DNA from: Thermoplasmata archaeon
GTDB taxonomy: Archaea > Thermoplasmatota > Thermoplasmata > Lutacidiplasmatales > UBA184
Length of the DNA: 64,000 bases
Assembly (NCBI GenBank): GCA_021816955.1
Contig: JAKAWP010000004.1
Coordinates: forward strand, 117-64,116
Reading direction: 5' to 3'
Position 1 is the first letter of the stretch, and each line of letters begins with the position of its first letter. Shown one piece after another: positions 24,247 through 41,131 of this stretch. The translations under genes were made by a program, and so were the position numbers. A model generated the notes under the pieces. That model worked only from the letters and a program-made list of their open reading frames with translations, was not told the DNA's origin and did no database searches.

Positions 24247-27200
24247 TCAGCCGATCGGTGCGCCGCACCGAGTACAGAACCGAAGTCCGGGCCGGACCAC
24301 GTTGCCGCACTGCGGACACGCCCGTCCGCCCTCAGGTCCGATCGCTCCCGGGACGGTCGGCGGCGGGGATGGGCGAGGGTCCGTCGGGGACGGGGCCGCG
24401 AATCTCTCGCTCGGAGAGCTCCGCGGCGGAGTGGGTGGTGCGGCGGGAGCCGCCGGGCCTGGCGCCTCGGCAAGGAATCGGCCACCCAGCGGCGCGCCGC
24501 ATTCGCGGCAGAAGCGATCATTCGGGAGGTTCGAGCGGCCGCAATGCGCGCACGTCGCGATCCCTTGCGGACGGGGGGAGACCGGGAGAGACGGGGCGAC
24601 TGGAACCGGCGATGTCCCACCGGGCCCCGCCGGGGTTGGAGAAGGAGGGGGTGCCGGCGTTGGAGCCGACCATTGAGCGCGAATGGTGGACGGCGGCGAA
24701 GGGGGACCCGGCGGGGAAGGGGGCGTCGAGAGCGAGGCGGCGGGCGGAGGTGGGGGGTACCGAGGCGGAGGCGGTGGGACGTGCGTCGGCGGTACCGGCG
24801 CAGTGGTAGGGGGAGGGGGCCAGTGGTACCCGTACCCGGTCGCCGCCAGAGGTGGGCCCTCCGGCGGCTTCGGGTACTGGGCGGGTGCCGTCGGTGGAGG
24901 GGGATACAGGGGGGCGCCGGGCCAAGCGTAGCCTCCCGTGCCCGGGGCCGAGCCGGGCGGGGGAGGATAGGCCGTGGGAGGAGGACCAGTCTGGATCGCG
25001 CGCCGTCGGCGGGCGCGACGTCGGGCGGATCCGACCGACGCGGCAACGATGATCAGAATGACGATCACCAGCACCAGCCAAAAGCCGAGCGGGCCAAGGC
25101 CGAGGAACGAGAAGAACGATTCCAGGGTCGATAGGAAATTCCCTCCTCCGCCCGGGGCGACCGTGAAATTCAGGAAGACGGTCAGGTTCTTGGCCACCGA
25201 TAGCGGTCCGTTTGCCGGGGTGCTTGCGTAGCCGGACGGTGCGGAAACGGTGTACGTGTAATTGCCGCTCGGTAGGAGGAAGCTGAGCGTCGAAGCCGAG
25301 GTACTGTTCGTGCGGTACGGTGAAGATCCCACCTGGATCGTGACGGACCACGACGCGTTCCGCGTGCCGTTCGCGTGGAAGACCACAGAGTACTGAGGTC
25401 CTCCACCGTCCAGCGTGGAGAGGTTGGTCGCATAGATCGAGCCCCAGCCGGTGACCAGGTCGTACCCTGCCAAGGCCGGATAGCGGTAGTTGCTACCGGC
25501 CGTCACATCGTAGAACGCATTGAGCGACAGTCGGCCGGCCGTCTGGTTGGTGCCGAGACTATAAAGCGCGGGATTCAGGTAGCCGAGAGGTTCCAAGTGG
25601 CGCACGGCGTGCACTGCATCGATGGTGGCGATCAGTCCCGCCGTCAGCGGGCTCGCGATCGAGGTGCCCCAAACGCCAACGGTCGGGTTGAACTGGCCGT
25701 TGCTCGAGATCGCGATGATCGTGTTGTTCGCGATGGCCGATAGGTCCGGGACGGCCCGTTGGGCTCCCTGGCCGGCCCCTAAGATCACCGAATTCGCGGA
25801 GCTCGCCACCTGCCAGTTCGGCTCCGCGAAATTGGGAGAGATCCCGCCGACGCAACCCGCCGGCCCTCCATCCGCGGCATCGGAAATGTACCACGCGATC
25901 TGCTGCTGGATCGCAAGGCTACTCGAGAGGGTCACCGTTGTCCCTCCGACCGCCGAAACCCCGTACGTGTTGTACGCCATCGTCGACGGGAACTCCACGC
26001 CGTCCGGGGTGCCGCTGGTCCACTTGGAGCTCGCCGGGTTGTCGCCCGAGTCGCCGGTCGACGCGAGCACGGTGATCCCTCGCGCCGCGCACTCTTGAAG
26101 CGGGGAGGTCCATCCGCTCTGGAGGCCGTCAGAACCCCCCCAGGAGTTCGTGATCACTTGGACGGACGGCAGGTTCACGGCCGTCACGAACGCGCTCAAC
26201 AAATTGGCGAATGTGGGGCTTGGACCGTAGACGTTGTAGATCGTCGCCCCGGGCGCGGTGCTACCGACCATCTCGAGGTCGAGCGTGTTTTCGAGCGTCG
26301 CATCGGTGGTGTCGTACTGGGCGCTCGGGCCCGGCGGGGGAGCTCCTCCGACCGGATCCCCGATCACCGTGGCATGGGGCTGTCCGGCCGGTAGCGTGGC
26401 GTTGAAGTACGCCTGGATGTCGGCCGGGTCAAACGGGCCGACCGGAGTTCCGCTCGCATTCGTCCCGGACCAAAGGACCGTGGCGACGACCTCGGTCGTC
26501 GGATAAGCGACGCTGAACAGCGGAACCTCATCGTACGCCGGCTGGAGGTCGCTCCCGTAGATGTACTGGGCGCCGTTCGCGCCGGTGATCGGCGAGGGGT
26601 ACCCCTGCGCCGATTCGATCGAATGGGAAGCGGTCGAAGCGACCGGGGTGACCGACCGAAGAGCTTCCCCGAGCGGAGCAAAGTGGGCCGTTGCATAGTC
26701 GTCGAGGCCGTAGACCCCCGAAACCATGCCCGCGAGCACAGCGGGCAAGGAGGGGGGGTGAACCGGAGCGTAGAACGCGCCCTGTCCCGGGGAGACGAAA
26801 CTCCCCCATCGGGTCGAAAAGAGCGCGCCCAAGGCCGTCGCGCTTCCCGAGACGCCGATGTTCGATCGGTCCGAGAACGCATGGACCGTAACCCCGGGGA
26901 ACGAGCCGAGGTAGGCGAGCGCGGCCTCGTAGGCGGAGGAAGGCACCCCGAACTCCTGCGCGAACTCGGCCGCGGTGAGGTAATGATGATAGTCGGGGGC
27001 CGACGGATCGTTGAGCGAGGCCAAGAGGGCCGCAAGCTCGGCCTCGTGCGAGAACTTCAGCTCGATCGTCGCCTCGATGGTTCCTGTGTAGCTCCCGACC
27101 AAGGGAGCTCCGCTCGGCCAGTCGACCGGGCTCGCGACCGAGACTCGAGGCGAGGCGGCGATGTCGGCGAGCGTCAGATCGGACCCCGGCGCTCCCGGAG

Positions 27201-27348
27201 CCCCGGCGCCTTCGGCGGCAGTCATCGGAATGACCAAAGCGAACGAGACGAGCGCGCCGAAGACAACCCCGGCGGCGAGAAGCCCTCGAAGCCACGTCGT
27301 CCGACCGGCCGACGGAGGCCCCGGGGTCTTGCCGCCCTTACGTTCCAT
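24247..27348 (-). CDS. membrane-anchored S53 (sedolisin/kumamolisin-type) serine peptidase with a cytoplasmic Pro-rich tail and two zinc ribbons
   Basis: Trimmed to MERKGGKTPG...LLAAGVVFGALVSFALVIP (signal anchor). It has a pro-kumamolisin activation-domain segment (DYHHYLTAAEFAQEFGVP) and the S53 motifs ENTLDLE, SWGG and WGTSIASPLTAG. These are followed by a second TM helix, a basic stop-transfer RRRARRRR, and the zinc ribbons CAHCG..CRECG and CPQCG..CTRCG. Confidence 0.85.
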   Translation of the reverse strand: MERKGGKTPGPPSAGRTTWLRGLLAAGVVFGALVSFALVIPMTAAEGAGAPGAPGSDLTLADIAASPRVSVASPVDWPSGAPLVGSYTGTIEATIELKFSHEAELAALLASLNDPSAPDYHHYLTAAEFAQEFGVPSSAYEAALAYLGSFPGVTVHAFSDRSNIGVSGSATALGALFSTRWGSFVSPGQGAFYAPVHPPSLPAVLAGMVSGVYGLDDYATAHFAPLGEALRSVTPVASTASHSIESAQGYPSPITGANGAQYIYGSDLQPAYDEVPLFSVAYPTTEVVATVLWSGTNASGTPVGPFDPADIQAYFNATLPAGQPHATVIGDPVGGAPPPGPSAQYDTTDATLENTLDLEMVGSTAPGATIYNVYGPSPTFANLLSAFVTAVNLPSVQVITNSWGGSDGLQSGWTSPLQECAARGITVLASTGDSGDNPASSKWTSGTPDGVEFPSTMAYNTYGVSAVGGTTVTLSSSLAIQQQIAWYISDAADGGPAGCVGGISPNFAEPNWQVASSANSVILGAGQGAQRAVPDLSAIANNTIIAISSNGQFNPTVGVWGTSIASPLTAGLIATIDAVHAVRHLEPLGYLNPALYSLGTNQTAGRLSLNAFYDVTAGSNYRYPALAGYDLVTGWGSIYATNLSTLDGGGPQYSVVFHANGTRNASWSVTIQVGSSPYRTNSTSASTLSFLLPSGNYTYTVSAPSGYASTPANGPLSVAKNLTVFLNFTVAPGGGGNFLSTLESFFSFLGLGPLGFWLVLVIVILIIVAASVGSARRRARRRRAIQTGPPPTAYPPPPGSAPGTGGYAWPGAPLYPPPPTAPAQYPKPPEGPPLAATGYGYHWPPPPTTAPVPPTHVPPPPPRYPPPPPAASLSTPPSPPGPPSPPSTIRAQWSAPTPAPPPSPTPAGPGGTSPVPVAPSLPVSPRPQGIATCAHCGRSNLPNDRFCRECGAPLGGRFLAEAPGPAAPAAPPTPPRSSPSERFAAPSPTDPRPSPPPTVPGAIGPEGGRACPQCGNVVRPGLRFCTRCGAPIG

Positions 27349-27378
27349 CGTGCGTGCGGCTATGTATCCCCGAGCAGG

Positions 27379-27387
27379 GGATAAAGC
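27379..27387 (-). promoter_or_regulatory. TATA-like box (GCTTTATCC) upstream of the S53 peptidase gene
   Basis: An A/T patch about 35 nt upstream of the ATG at 27348, inside the 61-nt spacer after the MBL gene. Confidence 0.35.
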
Positions 27388-27409
27388 TACGCGCCGTCGA
27401 ATCCGCGAC

Positions 27410-28078
27410 TCAGAGTCGAGTGACGAGGGTGCGGAGTTTGGCGCCCGCGCCTTTGAGGAACGGGCCGCCGTGGTAGGTGAAGAGCGATTCGATGGAGAGC
27501 TGGGCCACCCGGCGGGCGGAGATCTGGGCGGTCGGAGAATGCAAGGTGAACTCCTTCGGCGTGAGCGACACCTCCGAGGCGTCCCCGAAGAACAGATCGC
27601 CCGAGAACAGCCACCGCTTTTCGGGCTGATAGAAGACGAGATGGCCGGGGGTGTGGCCGGGAGTGTGGTACGCCACGAGCCCTCCCGCCGCATCGACCGA
27701 ATCGCCATCCTTGAGAACCTCGTCGATCGTAACCGGCTCGGCCGGCGGCACTCCCGGGCCGTCGTACGGCGGCTTCTGGGCGATGAACGCAGATTCGATC
27801 CAGTGCGCGAACGTTCGCGCTCCCGTCAGTTCGATGAGCCGTCGCAGGCTGCCCGTGTGGTCGCGGTGGAGATGGGTGATCAAGATTTTCTTCACCTGCC
27901 GCGGCTCGGCGCCGATCCGTCCGAGGTAGCTCATGATCGCCGAATCCGATCCGGGAAGGCCCGTGTCCAAGAGCGTCCAGTTCCCTCCGCGGTCCTTGAG
28001 CAGATAGACGTGGGTCGAGAAGTCCGGCGATGGGTCGACGCCCTCCACGAGGTGCACTCCGGGTGCGATTTCGGGCAT
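27410..28078 (-). CDS. MBL-fold metallo-hydrolase
   Basis: 222 aa with the HLHRDHTGS (HxHxDH) and HTPGHTPGH motifs. Confidence 0.85.
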   Translation of the reverse strand: MPEIAPGVHLVEGVDPSPDFSTHVYLLKDRGGNWTLLDTGLPGSDSAIMSYLGRIGAEPRQVKKILITHLHRDHTGSLRRLIELTGARTFAHWIESAFIAQKPPYDGPGVPPAEPVTIDEVLKDGDSVDAAGGLVAYHTPGHTPGHLVFYQPEKRWLFSGDLFFGDASEVSLTPKEFTLHSPTAQISARRVAQLSIESLFTYHGGPFLKGAGAKLRTLVTRL

Positions 28079-28138: not shown

Positions 28139-29137
28139 CTAGCCCGCTTGAGCGCTCCACCGGGCGCCGAGCGCCGCGACGGACGAGCGGACATCGTCCG
28201 CCGGTAGCCCGCCAAAGTCGAACAACCCGAGGACCTCGTCGACTCCCAGGGACTGAAAGGTCGAGAGGCGGTCCGCGACCTCCGCCGGGCGACCGAAGAG
28301 GGCAAAGCCGGCCTTCTCGATCGCCTCCGGGGTCGCGTGGGCGGGGTCGCGTCGCGCCTTGTCGGCATAGAACGTGCTCTGCGTCGCCAGCCGCGTCGCG
28401 AGGTACTGCCGAAGCGCGGCGCGCGCCCGCGCTGGGTGATCGCCGGCGTACAGGTGGACGCCGATGGCGACCTCGACCTTCACTCCCGCGGGAGCGGCGG
28501 ATCGGAAGAGGCGGATCTCTTCGGCGAGCTCGTCGAGCCCCGAGACCGTCGCGTACGGGATGAGGGCAAGCGACGCGCCGCGCCGGGCCACGAACGGAAT
28601 CGCCTCCTTCCGTTGAACCGCGATCCAGAGCGGCGGATGCGGCGTCTGAACGGGCCGGACGTTCAGGGCGACTTCCGGACCGTGCGGGCCCGCCGGGCGA
28701 ACGGGCTCGCCGACCCAGGCCCGGAGGATCGTCGCCAGCGCGGCGTCGAACCGCTCCCGCTTGTCGCTGGCCGGGACGCCGAACGCCTCGAGCTCGAGCG
28801 CCAGATAGCCGCTCCCGACCCCGAAGTTCAAGCGGCCGTGGGACAGCTGATCGACGAGCGCGTACTGCTCGGCGATCTCGACGGGCGCGTGGAACGGTAG
28901 GACGCTCACCATCGCTCCGAGCCGGAGGCGACGGGTTCGCGCGGCCACCGCCGCGAGCGCGATCGGGGGAGATGGCAACACGCCGCCCGGTTGGAAGTGA
29001 TGCTCCGCGACCCAGAAGGCGGAGAGGTCAGCCGCGTCAGCGGCGTCGCCGAGCGCGAGGAGCTCGGAGTACCGATCCCGCTTAGCGGCTTCTTCCGAGG
29101 GAAAGGCGTCGACCACACTGAATGCGCTGAGCTTCAC
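28139..29137 (-). CDS. LLM-class (luciferase-like) flavin/F420-dependent oxidoreductase
   Basis: Trimmed to the GTG (VKLSAFSVVDAF...). Contains FWVAEHHF and GRLNFGVGSGY segments typical of the family. The upstream 199 codons of the track ORF are junk. Confidence 0.85.
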   Translation of the reverse strand: MKLSAFSVVDAFPSEEAAKRDRYSELLALGDAADAADLSAFWVAEHHFQPGGVLPSPPIALAAVAARTRRLRLGAMVSVLPFHAPVEIAEQYALVDQLSHGRLNFGVGSGYLALELEAFGVPASDKRERFDAALATILRAWVGEPVRPAGPHGPEVALNVRPVQTPHPPLWIAVQRKEAIPFVARRGASLALIPYATVSGLDELAEEIRLFRSAAPAGVKVEVAIGVHLYAGDHPARARAALRQYLATRLATQSTFYADKARRDPAHATPEAIEKAGFALFGRPAEVADRLSTFQSLGVDEVLGLFDFGGLPADDVRSSVAALGARWSAQAG

Positions 29138-29450
29138 CCGGTCCGTCCCTCCGTCAGGGGTGAGGGTTGGCAAACGCCCGGCCGTCTTAACCCGGACTCC
29201 TTCCCGCCGCGTTCGCGAGGCGCAGGGGTCTTGGGCGCCGGCGCGCTTCACGGGCCGCACCGTGAAGCTCCGGGGTGTCGCCGTGCAGGCCGGAACCGCG
29301 ACGGCCGTCCTCCGCCTCCGACCGGTCCAGGACGGTCGCCCGGGGTGGGTAGCGGCCACCCAATCGCCGGTGCCACGGCCCGCCGCACTGTTCGGTCGGG
29401 GGCTTCGCGGGTGGATCGTCGGAAGCCGGTGGACGCGCCGCCCCTCTTTC

Positions 29451-30185
29451 GTGCCGCGCGTGCCGATCGTCGCCGGGATCGACCTCGACGCGCTCCGTGA
29501 AGGAGACGTGGTCAGAATCGACGGAGCGGCCGGTGACGTTCGCGTGATCGGCGTGAAGGCGGTGAACGTCGTCACCGCCTTTCTCGAGCGCGCCGACGGG
29601 CGAATATTGCTGCTGAAGCGGTCCTCGCGCGTTGGCTCCTTCCAAGGACGGTGGGCCGGGGTTTCCGGGTACCTCGAGGACCCGACACCGCTCTCCCAGG
29701 CCCTTCGCGAGATCCGAGAAGAGACCGGTATCATCCGTTCGAAGCTGCGCCTGGTTGCCCGGGGGCGTCCGTTGTGGGCTCGGGACGGCCCCCGGGCGTT
29801 TCGGGTTCACCCGTTCCGGTTCCGCACCCGGACCGTTCGCCTTCGACTCGACTGGGAGCATACGGCTGCGGCCTGGGTCGATCCGGCGACCCTCCGTCGC
29901 CGACGCACCGTCCCGAAGCTGGACGAAGCATGGTCGAGCGTCGCCGACCGTCCCCTGCCGGCGGCTTCCGCCGCGAGAAGGCATAAGACCGAGAAACCAT
30001 CCGCGAACCGCTGGGCTGGTAGATCAGTTGGAAGATCGCCGGTTTTGCAAACCGGAGGCCTCGGGTTCGAATCCCGACCAGTCCATCCCGAGAACGGCTC
30101 CGACCCGTCGGCGACCTCGCCACCGGGCGCGACACCTTCGGACACGGAGAACCGGCCCGGTGGTACGGTCTCCGGTGAGGGTTGA
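29451..30185 (+). CDS. NUDIX hydrolase (both ends uncertain)
   Basis: Contains the Nudix box GVSGYLEDPTPLSQALREIREETGI. The proposed start is the GTG at 29451 (or 29460). The frame has no stop until 30183-30185, so it reads through tRNA-Ala on the same strand. Confidence 0.6.
   Translation: MPRVPIVAGIDLDALREGDVVRIDGAAGDVRVIGVKAVNVVTAFLERADGRILLLKRSSRVGSFQGRWAGVSGYLEDPTPLSQALREIREETGIIRSKLRLVARGRPLWARDGPRAFRVHPFRFRTRTVRLRLDWEHTAAAWVDPATLRRRRTVPKLDEAWSSVADRPLPAASAARRHKTEKPSANRWAGRSVGRSPVLQTGGLGFESRPVHPENGSDPSATSPPGATPSDTENRPGGTVSGEG
30013..30085 (+). tRNA. tRNA-Ala (anticodon UGC)
   Basis: Hand-folded 73 nt. The acceptor GGGCUGG/CCAGUCC includes the G3:U70 alanine identity pair. The D arm is GAUC-AGUUGGAA-GAUC. 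The anticodon stem is CCGGU/ACCGG with loop UUUGCAA. The T arm is UCGGG-UUCGAAU-CCCGA. Confidence 0.92.
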
Positions 30186-30381
30186 CCGCCCGCGAATCAG
30201 CGGGGCCCGCGCCTCCTACCGGAGGCGCGCCGATCGTGCCACGAGGATTCTCCCTCTACGATCGCCCCGCAGACACTGACCTTCCAAGGGAGCAGTCCTA
30301 CCCGGACCGGAGCGCGGGGCCTCCGGCCCTAGGGCGGGAAACCCGAGTTCGGCTCTCCGCGCGCCGGCTCCCCGGCGAGCG

Positions 30382-32724
<2,343 letters not shown>

Positions 32725-32884
32725 TCAAGACCCGGCCGCTCCGGGCGGCCGACAACGTTCGCGGCATCGCGACTCCGGCCGATCCCCTCGAGGGAGCGCT
32801 CCCCTCGGGCCCCGCTCGGGATCGAAAGGGGTTCGGACGATCGCGAAGATGTAGGTGACGCCGGTCGTGAAACGGGCATCGGAC

Positions 32885-32899
32885 CTATAATTATTATAA
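32885..32899. promoter_or_regulatory. PerR-box-like 7-1-7 inverted repeat CTATAAT-T-ATTATAA
   Basis: It matches 14 of 15 positions of the Bacillus PerR box TTATAATNATTATAA as I remember it. It sits in the only strongly A/T-rich island between katG and the divergent Fur-family gene, and is directly followed by TATATAA (32901-32907). Confidence 0.5.
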
Positions 32900-33134
32900 G
32901 TATATAACTCATAACCGGACTCCGTGCCTCGACCGACCACTCGCCTCGATCCCCCGCCGGTCGGAATCCGCCAATCCGGAGAGCCGTGGAGCGACAACGA
33001 GAGCGATCCCCCTCTCCTTGGCCCGCGGAGGGCCTGATGCCGGCGGAACGCGTGCCCGCACCCGGCCGGCCTTGCGGCTTTCGAGCGAGGGCAACTCCCG
33101 TGCCGGGAGCGGGACCGAGGGGGTGGCGCCGGCG

Positions 33135-33713
33135 GTGAAGGGCAAGAACCCCCGCCTCCGGGATCGGTCGAAGGTCGGGAGCGCGCCGACGATCCGTTCG
33201 CCGGCGTCGGCGGGCGTCGCCGAGACTCTACGGAGTCTGTTGCAGAGCCACGGAGTCCGACTCTCCGCTCCGCGGTCGGCCGTCATCCGAGCTCTCGTGA
33301 GTCGGGGGGAAAGTCACCCCACCGCCGAAGAGGTCTTCTGGGAGGTGAGACGTCGAGGGCAGCGGATCGGCATCGCCACGGTGTACAACACCCTCGAGCT
33401 TCTCCGCGGGCTCGGAGCGGTTTCCGAACTCGGGTTTTCGGCGGGCCCCACGCGCTTCGACCTCAACTTGGCCCCGCATGCGAACTTGGTGTGCACGAAC
33501 TGCGGACGGATCTCGGATTACGAACTGGGGCCATTGGCCGATTGGACCCGAAAGCTGGGCGCAAGGGCGAATTTTGAAGTGCGACGGCAACGGCTGGACC
33601 TCTATGGTCTCTGCTCGGATTGTCGATCCCGCGAAGTGGCCCATCCCGAGGTGGCGCACCCGAAGTCACGGACGGTCCCCCTCGATCGCGATCGATCGGC
33701 GCTTCGCCGATAA
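33135..33713 (+). CDS. Fur-family (PerR-like) metalloregulator
   Basis: It has a winged-helix part (RSAVIRALVSRGESHPTAEEVFWEV...IATVYNTLELLRGLG) and CxxC pairs (CTNCG, CSDC). The start is uncertain: GTG at 33135 or 33123, or TTG at 33018. Confidence 0.8.
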   Translation: MKGKNPRLRDRSKVGSAPTIRSPASAGVAETLRSLLQSHGVRLSAPRSAVIRALVSRGESHPTAEEVFWEVRRRGQRIGIATVYNTLELLRGLGAVSELGFSAGPTRFDLNLAPHANLVCTNCGRISDYELGPLADWTRKLGARANFEVRRQRLDLYGLCSDCRSREVAHPEVAHPKSRTVPLDRDRSALRR

Positions 33714-33985: not shown

Positions 33986-36900
33986 CTACAGATACTGGGA
34001 GCACCGGTGGCAGTAGAACCGACCGTACTGCGGGTAGAACGTCGCGGCGTTCCCGCATCGGGGGCAGTTCGCGGCCATCGGGGTCGGGACCGTTCGAGCC
34101 GCGGTCGAACCCGCGGGGGACGGCATCGTTCCCGCCGGTGGGGAACTCCCCGGCGGCGGGAACCCGCTTCCCGATCCCGAACCGCCGGAACGAACGGAGG
34201 GAGCCGCGCCCGTCGCCGGCGGCCGGCCCCGGCGGCCCGCCCGCGAGGCGACTACGGCCCCGACGATCGCAACGATTCCCACGACGACCGCAATCTCGAC
34301 GTAAAGCATCGGGATCCCGAAGAGTGTCCCGCTCCCCCCACCGCCACCGGTGGGATTGAACGTCACGGTCGGACCGCTCGTGGCACCGGCGACCGTGAGC
34401 GTCCCGCTGCCGCCGCTATAGCCGGACGCCGTCGTGGAGTACTGATACGTGCCGTTCGGAAGCGCGACCACGATCGTCGCCCGACCGTCGGACCAGACGG
34501 TGATCGAGCTCCAGGGGGGCGGAAAGCCGGGGGCCGAAGGCGAACTCGCCGGGGCGAGCGTGAGCGACCAGTTCGTCCCCGACGGAAGGCCCGAGGCGGT
34601 GAACGACACCGAAAACGCCCGCTCGAACTCGATGGGAACGACGGAGCCGCGGCCCGCCACGACCACCGTGCCCGATGCGATGTTCGGGATCCATCCGGTC
34701 ACGTTCGCGACCTCGTACGGATACGTCCCGTTATCGAGCAGGACCACGATCGTCGATCCCGACGAGGCATCTTCCACCCCGTCCACGAACACGGCCCAGA
34801 GCGCGCCCGTCGGCAATCCGCTCTCGCTGAAGGTCACCGGATACGCGCCCGCCGGTACCGAATGGAAGCCGATCTGCTTGACCTGCCCAGCCCCCAAGAC
34901 GAACACCGCGCCCGAGCTCGGCGAGGGAACGTACCCGGTCACGAGACTGACCTGGTACGCATACGTCCCGTTCCCCGCAGTATAGGTGAGCGTCGAAGAC
35001 GTCGTCGTGCTTTGCGTACCGTTGAACGTCACGCCCCAGAGCGTACCCGTCGGCAACCCGATCTCTTCAAACGTCACGTTGTAAACCCCACTCGGCGAGA
35101 CCGAAGTGAAGACGATCCCTTGGGTGGCGGGACCGCCGTCGATCGCGACGACCCCCGATGGCGGCGATGCCGAATAGCCCGCGACCCGGCCCACAGTGAA
35201 CGCATACGACCCGTTGGTAGCGTTGAGGTCGATGATCGCCGTGACCGAGCTGTACGACCGGTTGCCCACCACGACCGACCACGGCGTGCCGACCGGAAGG
35301 CCGATCTCCTCAAAGCGGAGCTGATAGGTCGTCGGCGCGAACTGGAGAAGGACGGTCAGGTTTCCGTTCAGGGAGACCGATGACCGGTACGGAATGGTCG
35401 TCTGGAAGTATCCGGGAACCAACCCGAGGGTCCGCTCGTACCCCCCGCTCGGAAGTGTGAAACCGAGCACGCTGCCCGTCGTCGCATTGAAGGCCACCCG
35501 GGAGGAGGTGGTGCTGTTCATCCACATCTCCCACGCGGTCCCGACGGGCAGTCCTGTCTCTTCTACCGTCATCGTGTAGTTTGTGACCGGGAGCGGCCGG
35601 AACACGATCGCTTCGCTCGTGTTCTGGCCGGCGATCGTGATCGTCCCGCTCTCCGGAGAGGCAGCGAAGCCGCTCGCGTTCACCGAAAAGGCGTACGTGC
35701 CGTTCGTGAGACCGACAACCGTGACGTTGGCCGGCGCCGTCTGCGTGTTCGATTCCCCATTGATCGTCACCGTCCAGGGGGTTCCCGCCGGCAACCCGGA
35801 CTCTGCAAAGGTCGCCTGATACGTGCGGGGCGTCGCCACCGGGACGTACGACAGGACGCCCTGTTCTGGGCTTCCTCCGACCACGCTCAGCCCGTAGGTG
35901 TTCGCGCCGGTCCGGTTCCAAGAGAGGTTCGCGGCGATCTCGCCCGTCTGATCGACCTGCTGATCGAAGACGGCCGTCCGGGCGGGAACGAACGAGGACG
36001 AGCCGTACGGCTGAACCATCGCGACGAGCGATCCGTTCGTCGGTCGCTGAAATTCGCCGGTGGCACCGGACGGCCCGCCCACGAGTCCGAACTGCGGCGA
36101 GAGCCCGCCGAGCATTGGATTGTTGGGGTACGGACCGTTCGAGTAGTTCCTCCCCTGCCAGGAGTAGTTGTAGCCGAGCGAGCCGATGACGTACGCCGCC
36201 CCCGGCACGGGAAGGGTCAGGTTCTGGCCCGCCACGGAGAAGTCGATTTCCTGGCTGTTGAATCCCGGCGGACGGATCAGCGTGGTGCGGATCACGAACG
36301 TCTTCGGCAGAGAAACGGTTACATTCGGCGGGAAGTTGTACTCGTACACGGACTGTTGGGGATACAACCCGTAGAACGGGAAGATCACCCAACCGGTGTA
36401 CGCCATCCCCCACTGGGACGGCCCGCCTCGGATGTAGATCACGTTCTGGACCCAGTAGATCGGTGCGCCGAGACTGTTCGCGAGGAAGAAGTTCTGCTGA
36501 ATGGAGGCGTTGTACGTCGTGTAGATGCTACCCGATTTGTAGGACGTCACCTTAAGCGCGTTCAGGGACAGCGTATCCTCGACTCCCGAGAGCCGCCCGC
36601 TCACTCCGTTCGAATTGACGTTCAACATGTACATCGTGTAGTTGTACGCGTCGATCGATCCCCAACCGGTGACGAGGTCCCAACCTCGCAACGCTCCGTA
36701 TACCTGATTGTGGCCGCTCGTGACGTCGTAGAAGGGGAGCGTCGGAAGCGGCGAGTTATACGTTGACCCCGGAGAGGGGATGAATCCCACGTACCCCGTC
36801 GAATTGAACGGGGCCGCCTGGCGATCCCCGAGGGCGTACAGGCTCGGGTTCAGGAACCCGAGCCAAGCGTTCCCGTCCGCCTTCAAGACGTGGTCGATCG

Positions 36901-38713
36901 TCGCCACCACGCCCGCTTCAAGGGGAGACGCCACGCTCGTTCCGGCGATCGGAAAGAACGGCCCTCCGGTCGACGCGTTGGTCGCATCGTAGGTCATCGT
37001 TCCGACGGTGATCGTGAGAAGCGTGTTGTTCGCGAGCGCCGCGATGTCCGGCGTCGCGCGCCCGGACATTCCGGTCGACTGGATCACACGGTTCGCCGAG
37101 CTGTTCCTCTGCCAACTCGGCTCGGGGAAGACCGAACTGACCCCGCCGGTGGAGCCCTCCTTGTTCGTCTGATACCACACCGTTTGGTTCGCCAAGGTCA
37201 GATAGCCCGGCGTTCCGCTCGCCGCATCCAATGTCGGGGTGGTTCCGCCGACCGCGGTGACCCCGAACGAATCGTACGCCATGGTCGACGGAAAATTGAC
37301 ATCGGAGTTGCCCGAATCCCCGGAGGCGGCCAAGACCGTGATGCCGCGCGCTTGCGCCTCTTCGAGACCCGTGTACCAGGCCGTGTCGTTCTGGTCGGTG
37401 CCGCCCCAAGAGTTCGTCACCACCGAGACGTTGCGGAGGGGGGAACCGGCCGGCGGGTTCAATACGGTCGTGAAGGCGGCATCTAGATTGACGAGCGTGG
37501 GGTTCGGTCCGTAGACGTCGACGATGGTGGAGCCGGGGGCCGTGCTCCCGATCATTTCGAGGTCAAGCGTCGTCTCGACGGATGCGCCCGTGACATCGAA
37601 CGCCGCGGACGGCCCGGGCGAGAGCGCACCGTTCACCGGCAGACCCTCGATCTGGGGATGCGGCTCGCCGGCCGGAAGCGTTTCATTGAAGAACAGGTTC
37701 ACATTGCTCGGCACGTACGGCGCGGTGTAGTTCGAAGGCGAGCACGGGACCGAGGTGCTGGCCGGGACGCGGCACCCTCCCCACAGGATCGACGCGACGA
37801 CCCCATTGGTCGGATACCCGGCGTTCTGGAACAACCCGAGCTCATCATAGGCGACCTGGAAATCCGGAGCGTACTCGTACTGAACCCCGTTCACCGTGGC
37901 CGGTGGTACGTACCCGCCTTGGACGGACGCCGGGACGCTACGGGTCACGGGCGGCCCGTGCACCGAGGGAAGTAAGCGGAGCGAGACGGGGTGGACCGTG
38001 TACATCGAGTACGTGCTCAACCCGACGACTTCCGCCACATACGGCGCGACCGGGGAGGGCAACCTCGGACTCCCCGTCGGCGCTAGGTAGGCTCGCCCGT
38101 GAAGCACGTACTCTCCGAGTTGGACCCCAAAGATCTCGGCGATTTGGCGGGGCGTTGCCTCGAAGGTGAGCGACAGTCGGTCGGCGGTCGTCGTGATCGG
38201 CGCCACCCCGAACGATCGAACGAACGCTTCGAGGGCGTGATACGGCCCCGGCGCCCCCCCGAACTCGTGATCGAACTGCTGTTGGGTCAGATATCGGTGG
38301 TACAGCGGAGAGAGCGGATTCGACAACGCCAAAAGAAAATCGCCGAGAGCCGAACTATTCGTCGTCCGGAGGCTGATCAGGATCGGCACAGGGGCGGCGG
38401 GTGCCGGCCCGACCCATTGCGCGCCCGCGAGCCCGATGCCGGGCTCCCGATCCGGCACGTCGACCCGCGGAGCCAAGGCAAGCGCTCCGAGACCGCCAGC
38501 GATCGCGGGCGGGGTCGGACCCGGCGACGCGGGGAGCCCTGAGGGTGCCGAGGTGAGCGTGGAAGGAACGAAGAAGACGGCCGCGACCGCGACCACGAGC
38601 GCAAGTTGGACCGGCGTTGGTCGTCCGAATCGTCGATGCGCCCCTATCTCCACGGGATTCACCGATGTGGATTGTTGGTACGTGCGGCTGCTTAATACAG
38701 TGACTCTGCCCAT
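33986..38713 (-). CDS. giant membrane-anchored S53 peptidase with a thermopsin-like segment, six tandem beta-sandwich-type repeats, a TM helix and a C-terminal zinc ribbon
   Basis: It has a pro-kumamolisin segment (LSPLYHRYLTQQQFDHEFG) and the S53 motifs ETTLDLE, SWGG and AGTSVASPLEAG. A thermopsin-like segment follows (NASIQQNFFL...YWVQNV). The repeats are YxVTFxExGLPxGTxW modules. The TM helix is YVEIAVVVGIVAIVGAVVA, and the tail ends CPRCGN...CHRCSQYL. The start is the ATG at 38713; an alternative GTG at 38662 lies ~30 nt after a TATTAAG box. Confidence 0.85.
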   Translation of the reverse strand: MGRVTVLSSRTYQQSTSVNPVEIGAHRRFGRPTPVQLALVVAVAAVFFVPSTLTSAPSGLPASPGPTPPAIAGGLGALALAPRVDVPDREPGIGLAGAQWVGPAPAAPVPILISLRTTNSSALGDFLLALSNPLSPLYHRYLTQQQFDHEFGGAPGPYHALEAFVRSFGVAPITTTADRLSLTFEATPRQIAEIFGVQLGEYVLHGRAYLAPTGSPRLPSPVAPYVAEVVGLSTYSMYTVHPVSLRLLPSVHGPPVTRSVPASVQGGYVPPATVNGVQYEYAPDFQVAYDELGLFQNAGYPTNGVVASILWGGCRVPASTSVPCSPSNYTAPYVPSNVNLFFNETLPAGEPHPQIEGLPVNGALSPGPSAAFDVTGASVETTLDLEMIGSTAPGSTIVDVYGPNPTLVNLDAAFTTVLNPPAGSPLRNVSVVTNSWGGTDQNDTAWYTGLEEAQARGITVLAASGDSGNSDVNFPSTMAYDSFGVTAVGGTTPTLDAASGTPGYLTLANQTVWYQTNKEGSTGGVSSVFPEPSWQRNSSANRVIQSTGMSGRATPDIAALANNTLLTITVGTMTYDATNASTGGPFFPIAGTSVASPLEAGVVATIDHVLKADGNAWLGFLNPSLYALGDRQAAPFNSTGYVGFIPSPGSTYNSPLPTLPFYDVTSGHNQVYGALRGWDLVTGWGSIDAYNYTMYMLNVNSNGVSGRLSGVEDTLSLNALKVTSYKSGSIYTTYNASIQQNFFLANSLGAPIYWVQNVIYIRGGPSQWGMAYTGWVIFPFYGLYPQQSVYEYNFPPNVTVSLPKTFVIRTTLIRPPGFNSQEIDFSVAGQNLTLPVPGAAYVIGSLGYNYSWQGRNYSNGPYPNNPMLGGLSPQFGLVGGPSGATGEFQRPTNGSLVAMVQPYGSSSFVPARTAVFDQQVDQTGEIAANLSWNRTGANTYGLSVVGGSPEQGVLSYVPVATPRTYQATFAESGLPAGTPWTVTINGESNTQTAPANVTVVGLTNGTYAFSVNASGFAASPESGTITIAGQNTSEAIVFRPLPVTNYTMTVEETGLPVGTAWEMWMNSTTSSRVAFNATTGSVLGFTLPSGGYERTLGLVPGYFQTTIPYRSSVSLNGNLTVLLQFAPTTYQLRFEEIGLPVGTPWSVVVGNRSYSSVTAIIDLNATNGSYAFTVGRVAGYSASPPSGVVAIDGGPATQGIVFTSVSPSGVYNVTFEEIGLPTGTLWGVTFNGTQSTTTSSTLTYTAGNGTYAYQVSLVTGYVPSPSSGAVFVLGAGQVKQIGFHSVPAGAYPVTFSESGLPTGALWAVFVDGVEDASSGSTIVVLLDNGTYPYEVANVTGWIPNIASGTVVVAGRGSVVPIEFERAFSVSFTASGLPSGTNWSLTLAPASSPSAPGFPPPWSSITVWSDGRATIVVALPNGTYQYSTTASGYSGGSGTLTVAGATSGPTVTFNPTGGGGGSGTLFGIPMLYVEIAVVVGIVAIVGAVVASRAGRRGRPPATGAAPSVRSGGSGSGSGFPPPGSSPPAGTMPSPAGSTAARTVPTPMAANCPRCGNAATFYPQYGRFYCHRCSQYL
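34349..35821 (-). repeat. six tandem ~76-89-aa domain repeats (Y/F-x-V/L-T/R-F-x-E/A-x-GLP-x-GT-x-W ... NGTY-x-Y/F)
   Basis: Read from the translation. The repeat starts are YQATFAESGLPAGTPW, YTMTVEETGLPVGTAW, YQLRFEEIGLPVGTPW, YNVTFEEIGLPTGTLW, YPVTFSESGLPTGALW and FSVSFTASGLPSGTNW. Confidence 0.8.
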
Positions 38714-38777
38714 ATGCTTACGGGGCGAGGTCCGGGCCGAACGGCGGGTCTCGATACGGCCGCCACGCGCCGGCAAA

Positions 38778-38787: not shown

Positions 38788-38807
38788 TCCGTCGGTCCCG
38801 CCCTTCC

Positions 38808-39266
38808 GTGGCCGAGGAACCGCTCGACCCGATCCTGCTCCAGGTAACGATCCCGCTACCGGTGTCGATGATCTACGACGCGTTCGTCGAGGCCGGCAAG
38901 ATCACGGGATGGCTGGCCGACCGGGCGACCGTCGAGCTTCGCGTGGGCGGCGCCTATCGACTGGCGTGGGACGCGCCCGAGCGATTCGACAGTGACGGGA
39001 GAATCATCGCCTTCCACCGGGAGGTCGACCTCGACTTCACTTGGCAGTTCCCTCCCGCGTTCCGAGCGCTCGAGGGGGACCGCGCTGAACCGAGCCATGT
39101 CTACGTGCGGCTGCAGGAGTCGCCGGAAGGGATCGACGTCACTCTGGAACATGCCGGCTGGGCGAGCGGACCCCGCTGGGAAGACGCCCGGTCGTGGCAC
39201 TTCCATTTCTGGGACGAGCGGTTGCGGCGGCTCAAGGAGTACCTGATCGCCGAAGCCTACGGGTGA
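38808..39266 (+). CDS. SRPBCC/AHSA1 (START-like) family protein
   Basis: Trimmed to the GTG (VAEEPLDPILLQVTIPLPVSMIYDAFVEAGKITGWL...), a typical Aha1/BPI-like start. 152 aa. Confidence 0.75.
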   Translation: MAEEPLDPILLQVTIPLPVSMIYDAFVEAGKITGWLADRATVELRVGGAYRLAWDAPERFDSDGRIIAFHREVDLDFTWQFPPAFRALEGDRAEPSHVYVRLQESPEGIDVTLEHAGWASGPRWEDARSWHFHFWDERLRRLKEYLIAEAYG

Positions 39267-39472
39267 TGGGCGGCCGGCCCCGGTCGGCGGCCGATCGGGA
39301 GATACCCCCGGCACCCGTGCGCGCCGCAGGCGGAACAAGGGCCGACCGGGGCGAGTCGAAAGTTCGCGGAGCCTTCCACGGGTCGGACGACCATGTGGTC
39401 CGTCGGCCAGTGGCCGCAGCGGCAGCGCGCCGGAGCGTCGGCGCCCGGTCCGCCGGCCGTTCGGTCGGTCAC
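39257..39472 (-). CDS. possible Cys/His-rich zinc-binding mini-protein (71 aa)
   Basis: GTG start. Contains CRCGH...(31 aa)...CSACGAHGC. It exactly fills the gap between two confident genes. An AAAACGTTT patch lies about 29 nt upstream, and third positions are G/C-rich. Confidence 0.4.
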   Translation of the reverse strand: MTDRTAGGPGADAPARCRCGHWPTDHMVVRPVEGSANFRLAPVGPCSACGAHGCRGYLPIGRRPGPAAHHP

Positions 39473-39557
39473 GGGGGCGAAGAGGCGGGCCGAGGCAAAA
39501 CGTTTCGTGGCACGTCGCGTGCCCGTCCGGCGATCGCGAGCGAGGAAGACGACCGAG

Positions 39558-40271
39558 ATGACCGACGTACACGGCTGCTGGCTACCGGACGACCGACGCT
39601 ACAGCCTCGCGCACGACGTCTGGCTTCAGGCCACGGCGGACGGGACCGTTCGGCTCGGCCTGATGAGCCCGCTCGTGGCGTTCATGGGGATCGCCACGTC
39701 GTTTTCGTTTCGACCGGACGAGCCGGTCTCCGAACGAGGACGCAGCGTCGGGACGGTGGAGTCGGTCCGTTTCACGGGGGCCGTGCGACTGCCGCTCGCG
39801 GCCCGGGTGATCGAGCGAAACGGGCGACTCCTGTCGACGCCCCGGCTGCTAAACGACGATCCGTACGGCGAGGGGTGGGTCGTGCGCATCGCCCCGGTCT
39901 CGCCGTCGGACGTCGACCGGTACACCGTACCCGCCGAGGCGACCGTGGCCGAGTTGGACGAACGGATCCGGCGGCTCGGCATTCGCTGCTGGCCGAGGGT
40001 CCCCGACGTCGAGCTCGTCGAACTCGGACTCGAATGTTCGGCGATCTTCGCCAAGTTGGACGACGAGCTTGCGCGTCGGCCGAGCGGTTCGGCGGTCCTG
40101 CTCGTGACCGACGATCCGACCAGCCCGATCGAGATGGTCCGCTACACCGACCGGACGGGTCACGCGGTGCTCGCCCACCGAACGGAGGACGATCGCCATT
40201 ACTTCCTCGTTCGAAAGCGATCGGAGGGCGACCGAGGCGGCGTCGGGACGGACGGGCGACGTTTCGGATGA
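39558..40271 (+). CDS. GcvH-like domain (lipoyl Lys replaced by Arg) fused to a TusA-like sulfur-carrier domain
   Basis: The N-terminal half aligns with glycine-cleavage H protein (YSLAHDVWLQ..., GTVESVRFTGAV..., LLNDDPYGEGWVVRI). The C-terminal half aligns with TusA (VELGLECSAIF..., LLVTDDPTSPIEMVRYTDRTGHAVL, HYFLVRKR). Confidence 0.75.
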   Translation: MTDVHGCWLPDDRRYSLAHDVWLQATADGTVRLGLMSPLVAFMGIATSFSFRPDEPVSERGRSVGTVESVRFTGAVRLPLAARVIERNGRLLSTPRLLNDDPYGEGWVVRIAPVSPSDVDRYTVPAEATVAELDERIRRLGIRCWPRVPDVELVELGLECSAIFAKLDDELARRPSGSAVLLVTDDPTSPIEMVRYTDRTGHAVLAHRTEDDRHYFLVRKRSEGDRGGVGTDGRRFG

Positions 40272-40276
40272 TCCGG

Positions 40277-41131
40277 CTACTTCTCGATGGGGGTTCGCAC
40301 GAGATTCCCCCACTCGGTCCATGACCCGTCGTAGTTCCGCACGTCGGGATAGCCGAGCAGGTGCGTCAGGACGAACCAAGTGTGACTCGACCGCTCGCCG
40401 ATGCGGCAGTACGTGATCACCGGCTGGTCCGGTTTCACCCCGTGCCCCCGGTAGAGCGCCTCGAGCTCCTCGCGCGATTTGAACGTCCCGTCGTCCCGCA
40501 CCGCTTGGGCCCACGGGATGTTCTTCGCGCCGGGGATGTGGCCGCCGCGCTGGGCGTGCTCGGTCGGATACTCCGGGGGCGCCGTGATCTCGCCGGAGAA
40601 CTCCTTCGGGCCGCGAACGTCCACGAGCGCCCGGCGACCCGCCCGGACCTCGTCGAGCGCCGCGCGAACATCGTCGAGGAAGACTCGGAGCCTCGGATCG
40701 GGGGCCCCGGCCTTCGCGTGTCCGCGCGGAGGGTGCGGCGGCTCCTTCGTGAGCGGGCGGTCCTCGCTGATCCACTTCTTGCGGCCCCCGTTCATCAGCG
40801 CGAGCGATCGGAGACCGTAGTAGCTGAACACCCAGAAGGCGAACGCCGCGAACCAGTTGTTGAAATCGCCGTACAACACGATCCGCGTGTCGGGGTCGAC
40901 GCCGGCCCGCTCGAGGTACGCCGTGAGCGCATCGCGCGACAAGATGTCGCGTCGGACGGGGTCGTTGATATCCTTGCGCCAGTCGGCGAGCACCGCGCCG
41001 GGAATATGGCCGAGGTCGTAGTTCGCGGCGGGGTCGTAGTCGACCTCGATGATCCGCACCTTCGGGTCGTTAAGGTGCTCGGCGACCCACGACGTCTCGA
41101 CAACCGTCTCCGGATGCGCGTACTCGGCCAT
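40277..41131 (-). CDS. tandem-rhodanese sulfurtransferase (thiosulfate/3-mercaptopyruvate type)
   Basis: 284 aa with two rhodanese domains and the active-site loop CRIGERSSHTWF. Confidence 0.9.
   Translation of the reverse strand: MAEYAHPETVVETSWVAEHLNDPKVRIIEVDYDPAANYDLGHIPGAVLADWRKDINDPVRRDILSRDALTAYLERAGVDPDTRIVLYGDFNNWFAAFAFWVFSYYGLRSLALMNGGRKKWISEDRPLTKEPPHPPRGHAKAGAPDPRLRVFLDDVRAALDEVRAGRRALVDVRGPKEFSGEITAPPEYPTEHAQRGGHIPGAKNIPWAQAVRDDGTFKSREELEALYRGHGVKPDQPVITYCRIGERSSHTWFVLTHLLGYPDVRNYDGSWTEWGNLVRTPIEK

Follow-up and report, generated by a model that had tools for sequence, protein, structure and literature searches.

In a 64,000-nucleotide stretch of DNA from a Thermoplasmata archaeon (contig JAKAWP010000004.1; the whole stretch is called the window below), the gene at positions 33986-38713 of the minus strand (-) encodes a protein that is probably, judging from its sequence and by analogy with known enzymes, a tethered cell-surface acid protease of an acidophile, in which a sedolisin (MEROPS family S53) unit is joined to a probable cousin of thermopsin. 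This protein, hereafter the target, comprises an S53 protease, a beta-sandwich of ~270 amino acids (aa), six immunoglobulin (Ig)-like or prealbumin-like repeats, one transmembrane (TM) helix, a short tail and a four-Cys ribbon. It can be described as a sedolisin that probably carries an unmodelled, thermopsin-related domain and a surface-anchor tail. Its parts are listed here; the N-terminal region, TM helix, linker and ribbon were assigned by reading the sequence.

33986-38713 (-): whole gene of the membrane-anchored S53 protease, a single intact open reading frame (ORF) of 1575 aa, stop codon included
38549-38713 (-): N-terminal region, putative signal peptide or anchor, aa 1-55, RRFGRPTPVQLALVVAVAAVFFVPSTLTS, with homologue N-termini alike
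38012-38404 (-): Pro-kumamolisin activation (pro) domain, aa 104-234, Pfam PF09286
36623-37939 (-): S53 (sedolisin) catalytic domain, aa ~259-697, with E380, D384, D466 and S593 and a phmmer match in PDB
35822-36622 (-): middle all-beta domain, aa 698-964 (267 aa), no Pfam model, putative distant thermopsin-like beta-sandwich
34349-35821 (-): six tandem ~80-aa repeats (YxVTFxExGLPxGTxW...NGTYxY), aa 965-1455, beta-sandwich, predicted glycosylated stalk
34247-34324 (-): TM helix, aa 1464-1489, followed by SRAGRRGR (positive-inside)
34067-34246 (-): Gly/Ser/Pro-rich linker, predicted cytoplasmic, aa 1490-1549, no sequons
34001-34066 (-): predicted C-terminal four-Cys zinc ribbon, CPRCG-x13-CHRC, aa 1550-1571, CPRCG at 1550 and CHRC at 1568

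The S53 protease unit

Searches of the whole protein and of the isolated middle and S53 segments against Pfam and NCBIfam returned a single match, to Pro-kuma_activ (PF09286), which the whole protein reached at E=1.2e-19 and 71.4 bits against a cutoff of 23.5. A phmmer search of the PDB sequences matched aa 348-628 to kumamolisin-As (1SIO) at E=1e-20, and the Glu, Asp, oxyanion Asp and Ser of kumamolisin (E78/D82/D164/S278) align to E380/D384/D466/S593 of the target. This tetrad is kept in 64-69 of the 73 family representatives (~88%). The S53 motifs were located at aa 380-386 (ETTLDLE), 435-438 (SWGG) and 590-601 (AGTSVASPLEAG). Our results thus bear out the complete S53 unit proposed by the first-pass annotation, whose quoted motifs are all present, and identify the target as a predicted sedolisin (S53) zymogen in which the catalytic tetrad is complete. 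Peptidase_S8 (PF00082) gave no match at E<=10 with either the whole protein or aa 259-697, and the subtilase fold is assigned to the target from the PDB match; the relatives P0107 and P0108 do reach the PF00082 threshold.

Reading frame, start codon and assembly

The ORF is uninterrupted from an ATG at 38713, and the frame is open further, to a TTG at 38776. GC content at third codon positions (GC3) is 0.83 in this frame. The frame, GC3 and the recurrence of the domain order agree that a single ORF of ~1575 aa, as originally called, is real.

The corresponding database protein, P0027 (NCBI, 1496 aa), is identical to the target from residue 80 onward. Its gene call starts at an internal TTG (residue 80) and leaves out the signal peptide (window 38476-38713 (-)), so that with this start the target would be mis-predicted as non-secreted. 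Because the N-termini of homologues consist of a basic stretch followed by a hydrophobic one, as in the target, a longer start is the better choice. For the exact start codon there are two candidates, the ATG at 38713 and a GTG in the same frame that lies 18 codons further downstream; the homologues favour the longer start over that of P0027.

The long ORF could in principle be an assembly chimera made from collapsed or joined repeats, a concern that the first-pass annotation had itself raised. In favour of this, the contig is part of a metagenome bin, and among the database relatives there are several fragments with frameshifts. However, the DNA copies of the repeat are too diverged for mis-joining (<=82% identity over <=57 nt), codon-position GC is uniform, as for a real gene, and the same domain order is found in ~70 independent protein clusters and at 68 genomic loci. 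Tandem Repeats Finder (TRF) detected no repeat array in the DNA of the target gene. On the divergence of the repeat DNA and the recurrence of the domain order across independent clusters we rejected mis-assembly, which is extremely improbable.

The middle domain

The middle domain has no sequence match in Pfam, NCBIfam or PDB. Its motifs are NASIQQNFFL (aa 735-744), YWVQNV (aa 753-758) and QFGLVGGPSGATGEF (aa 874-888); the conserved residues are Q739, Q740, N741, W754, Q756, N757, P873, Q874, T923 and E925, and among 80 relatives 80-90% retain the motif residues. The domain has its own predicted conserved polar site, composed of Gln/Gln/Asn, Trp-x-Gln-Asn, Pro-Gln and Thr-Gly-Glu.

An AlphaFold2 model of the domain, computed from an alignment of 37 sequences that the representative search described below had supplied, is all-beta with ~21 strands, at a predicted local distance difference test (pLDDT) score of 92.2 and a predicted template-modelling (pTM) score of 0.91; an earlier 7-sequence alignment gave a pLDDT of 36.7. 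Comparison of this model with PDB by Foldseek returned nothing at E<=0.001. The high-probability matches were all beta-sandwiches, namely ulvan lyase (0.99), neprosin (0.95), HC7 and a neurexin LNS domain, and a GH16 xyloglucan transglycosylase was also among the matches. The match to neprosin (7ZVC) is weak, with E=0.017, probability 0.95, template-modelling scores (TM-scores) of 0.38/0.40 and a large root-mean-square deviation.

The S53 site is dead in 9 of the 73 family representatives, in which both E380 and S593 are replaced (P0063, P0079, P0082, P0086, P0089, P0090, P0095, P0096 and P0100). Several of these S53-dead members keep the middle-domain motif QQNWQ[NS]PQTE, and the middle-domain motifs are lost from some members that are among the most divergent and have S53 intact. 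We conclude that selection acts on the two domains separately. An S53 paralogue in the window (24247-27708) lacks the middle domain, so S53 can do without it. The middle domain is an autonomous module that S53 does not require.

Two side observations concern this module and its S53-dead carriers. The beta-propeller proteins P0111 (BNR, aa 390-578) and P0112 (FG-GAP, aa 545-791), which have no protease domain, carry the middle domain at the C-terminus with the SIQQNF/WxQNV/QTGE motifs intact. Several members of the S53-dead subgroup end in a conserved C-terminal ..PDEL/PTEL/PDEI/PDEF motif.

Relationship of the middle domain to thermopsin

The first-pass annotation had likened the middle segment to thermopsin (MEROPS family A5) on two thermopsin strings. 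These strings are genuine: they lie within our thermopsin reference sequence, which scores 2.9e-88 with Pfam Thermopsin and is 100% identical to the thermopsin of S. acidocaldarius (P0007). Moreover, the similarity goes beyond the two strings, as profile-profile comparison aligned three collinear motifs across the whole domain.

This profile similarity rises with alignment depth. With hhalign, a 7-sequence middle-domain profile gave P=0.044 against one thermopsin (probability 1.2%, 27 columns) and P=0.0026 against 16 sequences (12%, 36 columns), and a 37-sequence profile gave P=7.6e-4 against 16 sequences (25%, 195 columns). For 80 against 70 sequences, P was 3.9e-4 in local mode (36%, 57 columns) and 3.7e-5 in global mode (44%, 237 columns); the 80 sequences against five of a second thermopsin subfamily gave P=0.0023 (13%, 169 columns). 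In the local control, the real score of 35.5 compares with 13.5 +/- 2.5 for column-shuffled thermopsin profiles (maximum 25.4 of 100), and in the global control 27.3 compares with 2.2 +/- 1.7 (maximum 8.2). When the first motif was removed and the C-terminal halves were compared alone, two further motifs were aligned (P=0.02), which pairs LSPQFGLVGGPSG..F with YDAELVWGGGGNG..F and QTGExAxNL with DTAEAAYNV.

At the level of single residues, thermopsin Q109, N111, Q128, T303 and E305, each present in 70/70 thermopsins, align to Q739, N741, Q756, T923 and E925, which are kept in 61-68 of 80 relatives. In addition, the 77-aa repeat of the family is also found behind genuine Thermopsin domains (P0193, P0194, P0197 and P0198), so that the middle domain sits where the thermopsin domain sits elsewhere. 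Taken together, the sequence comparisons make it likely that the middle domain is homologous to the thermopsin (A5) domain and has diverged from it.

Several results weigh against this relationship. Pfam Thermopsin (PF05317) did not match the middle domain even at E<=10, and BLASTP of the domain against thermopsin returned nothing. The thermopsin hidden Markov model scored at most 12.6 bits on family members and 4.0 bits on the target (HMMER --max). All HH-suite probabilities stay below 50%, so that the profile similarity to A5 peptidases, with P down to 3.7e-5, is borderline. In a block-shuffle control, 1/60 shuffles reached the real global score, which indicates that the first motif carries most of the signal. 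The invariant or near-invariant thermopsin residues D144, N148, D228 and D257 have no counterpart in the middle domain, and E259 aligns with Gln874 in the second-subfamily alignment or with the neighbouring F875 in the global 80 against 70 alignment (position 874 is Q in 73/80 and E in 4/80 relatives). PDB sequence searches with profiles of both the middle-domain and thermopsin families gave no match at E<=10, leaving no thermopsin structure for comparison, and the structural matches are weak, with a best Foldseek E of 4.5e-3 and TM-scores <=0.40 for the listed beta-sandwich matches. Of the thermopsin-like segment proposed at first, then, the three collinear motifs and the margin over column-shuffled controls stand, and membership in the known family does not: the middle domain falls outside PF05317 as defined, the threshold not being reached.

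In the 70-sequence thermopsin alignment itself, the glutamates E259 and E305 are fully invariant, besides Q109, N111, Q128, N148, D228 and T303, and this Glu pair recalls that of the pepstatin-sensitive glutamic peptidase neprosin. E259 is absent from the candidates listed in the 2013 analysis of the thermopsin family, in which Rawlings describes the catalytic residues and the fold as unknown, suspects that the family includes non-peptidase homologues and takes the pepstatin sensitivity of thermopsin to exclude a glutamic mechanism (PMC3842238). Both pepstatin and 1,2-epoxy-3-(p-nitrophenoxy)propane (EPNP) inhibit neprosin, a beta-sandwich enzyme that is active in acid and has a Glu pair (PMC9343461), and the exclusion of a glutamic mechanism therefore no longer holds; the link from neprosin to the thermopsin mechanism is suggestive only. 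Our literature search found no useful account of thermopsin together with sedolisin, nor of the thermopsin fold or of the PDB entry HC7.

Possible functions of the middle domain

We lean towards a role of the polar site in binding substrate, either polypeptide or glycan. That the middle domain is a second carboxyl peptidase of a Gln/Glu type is a tentative possibility. Eqolisins need no more than a Gln plus Glu pair for catalysis, which argues for a dual protease, in which the middle domain would be active as a second, thermopsin-type acid endopeptidase and one polypeptide would carry two activities with different specificities. Such an arrangement is in our view somewhat unlikely. It fits the remote collinear similarity to thermopsin, which includes the invariant Gln, Asn, Gln and Glu, and the retention of the motif residues across relatives, also in non-S53 contexts and in S53-dead members; the fold model, too, is weakly like neprosin, which shares sensitivity to pepstatin and EPNP with thermopsin (PMC9343461). 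Yet E925 is the only well-conserved carboxylate, thermopsin E259 has a Gln aligned with it, and there is no equivalent of D144, D228 or D257. The uncertain catalytic residues of thermopsin and its suspected non-peptidase homologues (PMC3842238) count on the same side, as does Saci1846, a thermopsin-family protein that acts as an S-layer anchor (PMC12207459). To speak of two different acid-protease folds in one polypeptide, as the first-pass annotation did, takes it for granted that the middle domain, where D144, N148, D228 and D257 are without counterpart, is a protease.

A site with Trp, Gln, Asn and Glu is typical for the binding of sugars. The resemblance to thermopsin could be convergent or due to chance, the middle domain being an unrelated concanavalin-like or jelly-roll beta-sandwich that acts as a lectin or other carbohydrate-binding module or supports the S53 domain in the manner of a P-domain. 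We consider this unlikely. It would account for the absent Pfam match, for an HH probability below 50% that is dominated by one short motif, and for the Foldseek results, in which ulvan lyase has the top probability and the GH16 xyloglucan transglycosylase and neurexin LNS domains also appear. It is harder to reconcile with three motifs aligned in the same order, with C-terminal halves that score alone and with the same alignment being obtained from two separate thermopsin subfamilies; the domain lengths match as well, and genuine thermopsin domains are followed by the same repeat and by TM-ribbon tails. Against an obligatory P-domain role speaks the S53 paralogue at 24247-27708, which is predicted to work without the middle domain.

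Going further than homology with thermopsin, the middle domain and thermopsin might be two branches of one beta-sandwich carboxyl-peptidase superfamily with a fold related to eqolisins and neprosin, a proposal that we find distinctly doubtful. If it were true, the shared Q109, N111, Q128 and E305, with E259 matching Gln874, would mark the A5 active site, A5 would be a family of glutamic and not aspartic peptidases, and the target would be a genuine two-protease fusion (serine-carboxyl plus Gln/Glu-type) on an archaeal surface.

Repeats, membrane anchor and zinc ribbon

The six ~80-aa repeats proposed for 34349-35821 are present at aa 965-1455, with lengths of 81, 84, 81, 80, 76 and 89 aa in order. 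Across the S53-middle family, 299 copies of the repeat were gathered; against Pfam, the repeats gave only sub-threshold matches (PEGA, CarboxypepD_reg and SpaA prealbumin-like). The predicted TM helix and the Gly/Ser/Pro linker are likewise present (aa 1464-1489 and 1490-1549), a C-terminal TM helix being present in most family members, and the basic SRAGRRGR after the helix places the tail in the cytoplasm. The target has 37 N-x-S/T sequons against 14.0 +/- 3.2 expected from 1000 shuffles, in agreement with the many sequons noted earlier for the putative ectodomain, and all are N-terminal of the TM helix. From the ectodomain-side sequons and the positive-inside tail we infer that the protein would be displayed on the surface with a glycosylated ectodomain.

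The C-terminal ribbon has four Cys, as first described, with a spacing of C-x2-C-x14-C-x2-C, so that 13 residues, and not 15, separate CPRCG from CHRC. It scored 15.6 bits (E=0.016) with Pfam ribbon models of the PF13240/PF13248 type, under their cutoffs. Ribbons are found in 8 family members, and the tail of P0036 is near-identical to that of the target. The first-pass annotation had counted the cytoplasmic ribbon as part of an architecture not seen described; TM-plus-ribbon tails proved to be carried by many genuine thermopsin-family proteins and by the second S53 gene of the window. The ribbon is a predicted zinc-binding tail on the cytoplasmic side, of a kind that recurs on the surface proteases of archaea; that it serves in anchoring or partner binding is a guess.

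Regarding the thermopsin-family proteins, 11 genuine members that we examined end in a C-terminal CxxC...CxxC zinc ribbon (PF13240/PF13248), and a TM helix before it was detected in 9/11. These are P0138, P0143, P0152, P0164, P0166, P0174-P0176, P0179, P0180 and P0182, some of them named Nitrososphaerota or Thaumarchaeota. We found no description in the literature of a TM-plus-ribbon tail on thermopsin-family proteins.

Interpreted as a tethered surface protease, the target would be exported through its N-terminal signal peptide and would lose its pro domain autocatalytically, as kumamolisin does, in the low pH outside the cell. Once active, the protease would stay tethered on its glycosylated stalk and would degrade external proteins to peptides, to be taken up by cells that would be wall-less peptide scavengers.

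Distribution of the family

A word-indexed search found six relatives, fragmentary and from mine drainage, and their profile seeded an exhaustive search of representative proteins. This yielded 90 representatives with the middle domain, ~80 of them 1000-1900 aa long with the domain around residues 620-920, and ~70 of the 90 have the order pro-S53-middle-repeats-TM. By local domain mapping, the standard order in the family is signal, pro, S53, middle domain, 1-9 repeats and TM helix, to which the 8 ribbon-bearing members add their C-terminal ribbon. A scan with a 62-aa core alignment located the 68 loci in species-representative genomes, often several per genome; almost all of these bear the title Thermoplasmata, Thermoplasmatales, Cuniculiplasma or I-plasma, and they come from acid mine drainage, peat and soil. 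The comparison shows the S53-middle-repeat-TM order to be the standard architecture of a Thermoplasmata-wide family.

According to genome papers, extracellular peptidases of the S53 and thermopsin families are typical of acidophilic Thermoplasmatota (PMC5155288, PMC9287336, PMC10354927). In the literature we found no paper that characterises these large S53 proteins or describes the S53-middle-repeat-TM architecture. The earlier remark that such an architecture had not been seen described agrees with this; the architecture is nevertheless not unique, being the norm for a Thermoplasmata family of ~80 clusters.

A second S53 gene and the genomic neighbourhood

The other features of the window that were considered are the following.

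24247-27708 (-): second S53 gene, ~6 kb from the target, with pro-kumamolisin domain, S53, one repeat, TM helix, Pro-rich tail and two ribbons
within 28139-33713: luciferase-like monooxygenase, flanking gene
30012-30088: tRNA-Ala
30382-32625 (-): KatG catalase-peroxidase
33018-33713 (+): Fur-family regulator
38799-39266 (+): AHSA1/SRPBCC-like protein
39393-40271 (+): GcvH-TusA fusion
40277-41131 (-): double rhodanese

The second S53 gene has an intact S53 site (ENTLDLE, SWGG, TGDSG and GTSIASP) and lacks the thermopsin-like middle domain. Its tail, Pro-rich over ~200 aa, bears two Pfam-significant ribbons (PF13240 at 1.7e-11 and DZR at 1.6e-10), and the real start of the gene probably lies close to ORF codon 121. 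The presence of ribbons on this second protease makes ribbon tails a habit of the surface proteases of the lineage.

We also considered an operon context for the target and rejected it, because the neighbours (KatG, Fur, AHSA1-like, GcvH-TusA and rhodanese) are unrelated to proteolysis. The flanks (28139-33713 and 38799-41131) are an oxidative-stress and sulfur-relay neighbourhood unrelated to the target protease.

Significance

Most of the large S53 proteins of this family carry a conserved ~270-aa domain without a database model, whose beta-sandwich is confidently predicted and which is probably a distant relative of thermopsin. For annotation, this is a new domain family of ~80 clusters and 68 genomic loci. 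To our knowledge, the catalytic mechanism of thermopsin has remained unknown since 1990; the comparison of two diverged families shortens its candidate functional residues to a handful of Gln, Asn and Glu positions. The recurrent TM helix with a predicted cytoplasmic zinc-ribbon tail on archaeal surface proteases of both S53 and A5 is a further feature for which we found no description.

Comparison with known systems

The predicted beta-sandwich of the middle domain recalls that of the glutamic peptidases (neprosin G3, 7ZVC; eqolisins G1), with a weak Foldseek match. These enzymes are acid-active with a Glu plus Gln/Glu pair, and sensitivity to pepstatin and EPNP is common to neprosin and thermopsin. 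On the side of the differences, the TM-score with neprosin is only 0.38-0.40 and there is no sequence similarity; residues for a candidate dyad (among Q739, Q756, Q874 and E925) are indicated by linear conservation.

With thermopsin (MEROPS A5, PF05317, P0007), the middle domain has in common an all-beta domain of ~270 aa from archaeal acidophiles and the collinear motifs A[ST]xQxN...YWxQ[DN]V, [LI][VL]GG.xG...F and TxExAxN[LV]; with some thermopsins, the target also shares the 77-aa repeats and the TM plus zinc-ribbon tails downstream. In the target, however, the domain stands behind an S53 domain, whereas the thermopsin domain stands behind a signal peptide, and the middle domain is under the Pfam and HMMER thresholds, with D144, N148, D228 and D257 absent and a Gln aligned with E259.

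Saci1846 and M164_1049 are known membrane-anchored surface proteins of the thermopsin family (PMC12207459). At the archaeal surface, they share with the target a signal peptide, Ig-like domains, a C-terminal TM helix and a thermopsin-type domain, which is a probable one in the target; unlike it, they come from Sulfolobales, help in S-layer anchoring and have neither an S53 domain nor a reported ribbon (PMC12207459). Thermoplasmatales are reported to be without a paracrystalline S-layer (PMC12448462).

As to the protease itself, the target resembles kumamolisin and sedolisin (MEROPS S53; PDB 1SIO, 1T1E) in its pro domain, its Glu-Asp-Asp-Ser tetrad, its expected autoactivation at acid pH and its origin from an acidophile. 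Characterised sedolisins are soluble enzymes made of a pro and a catalytic domain; the target differs from them in falling under the threshold of Pfam Peptidase_S8 and in adding ~880 residues, which comprise the beta-sandwich, the six repeats, the TM helix and the ribbon.

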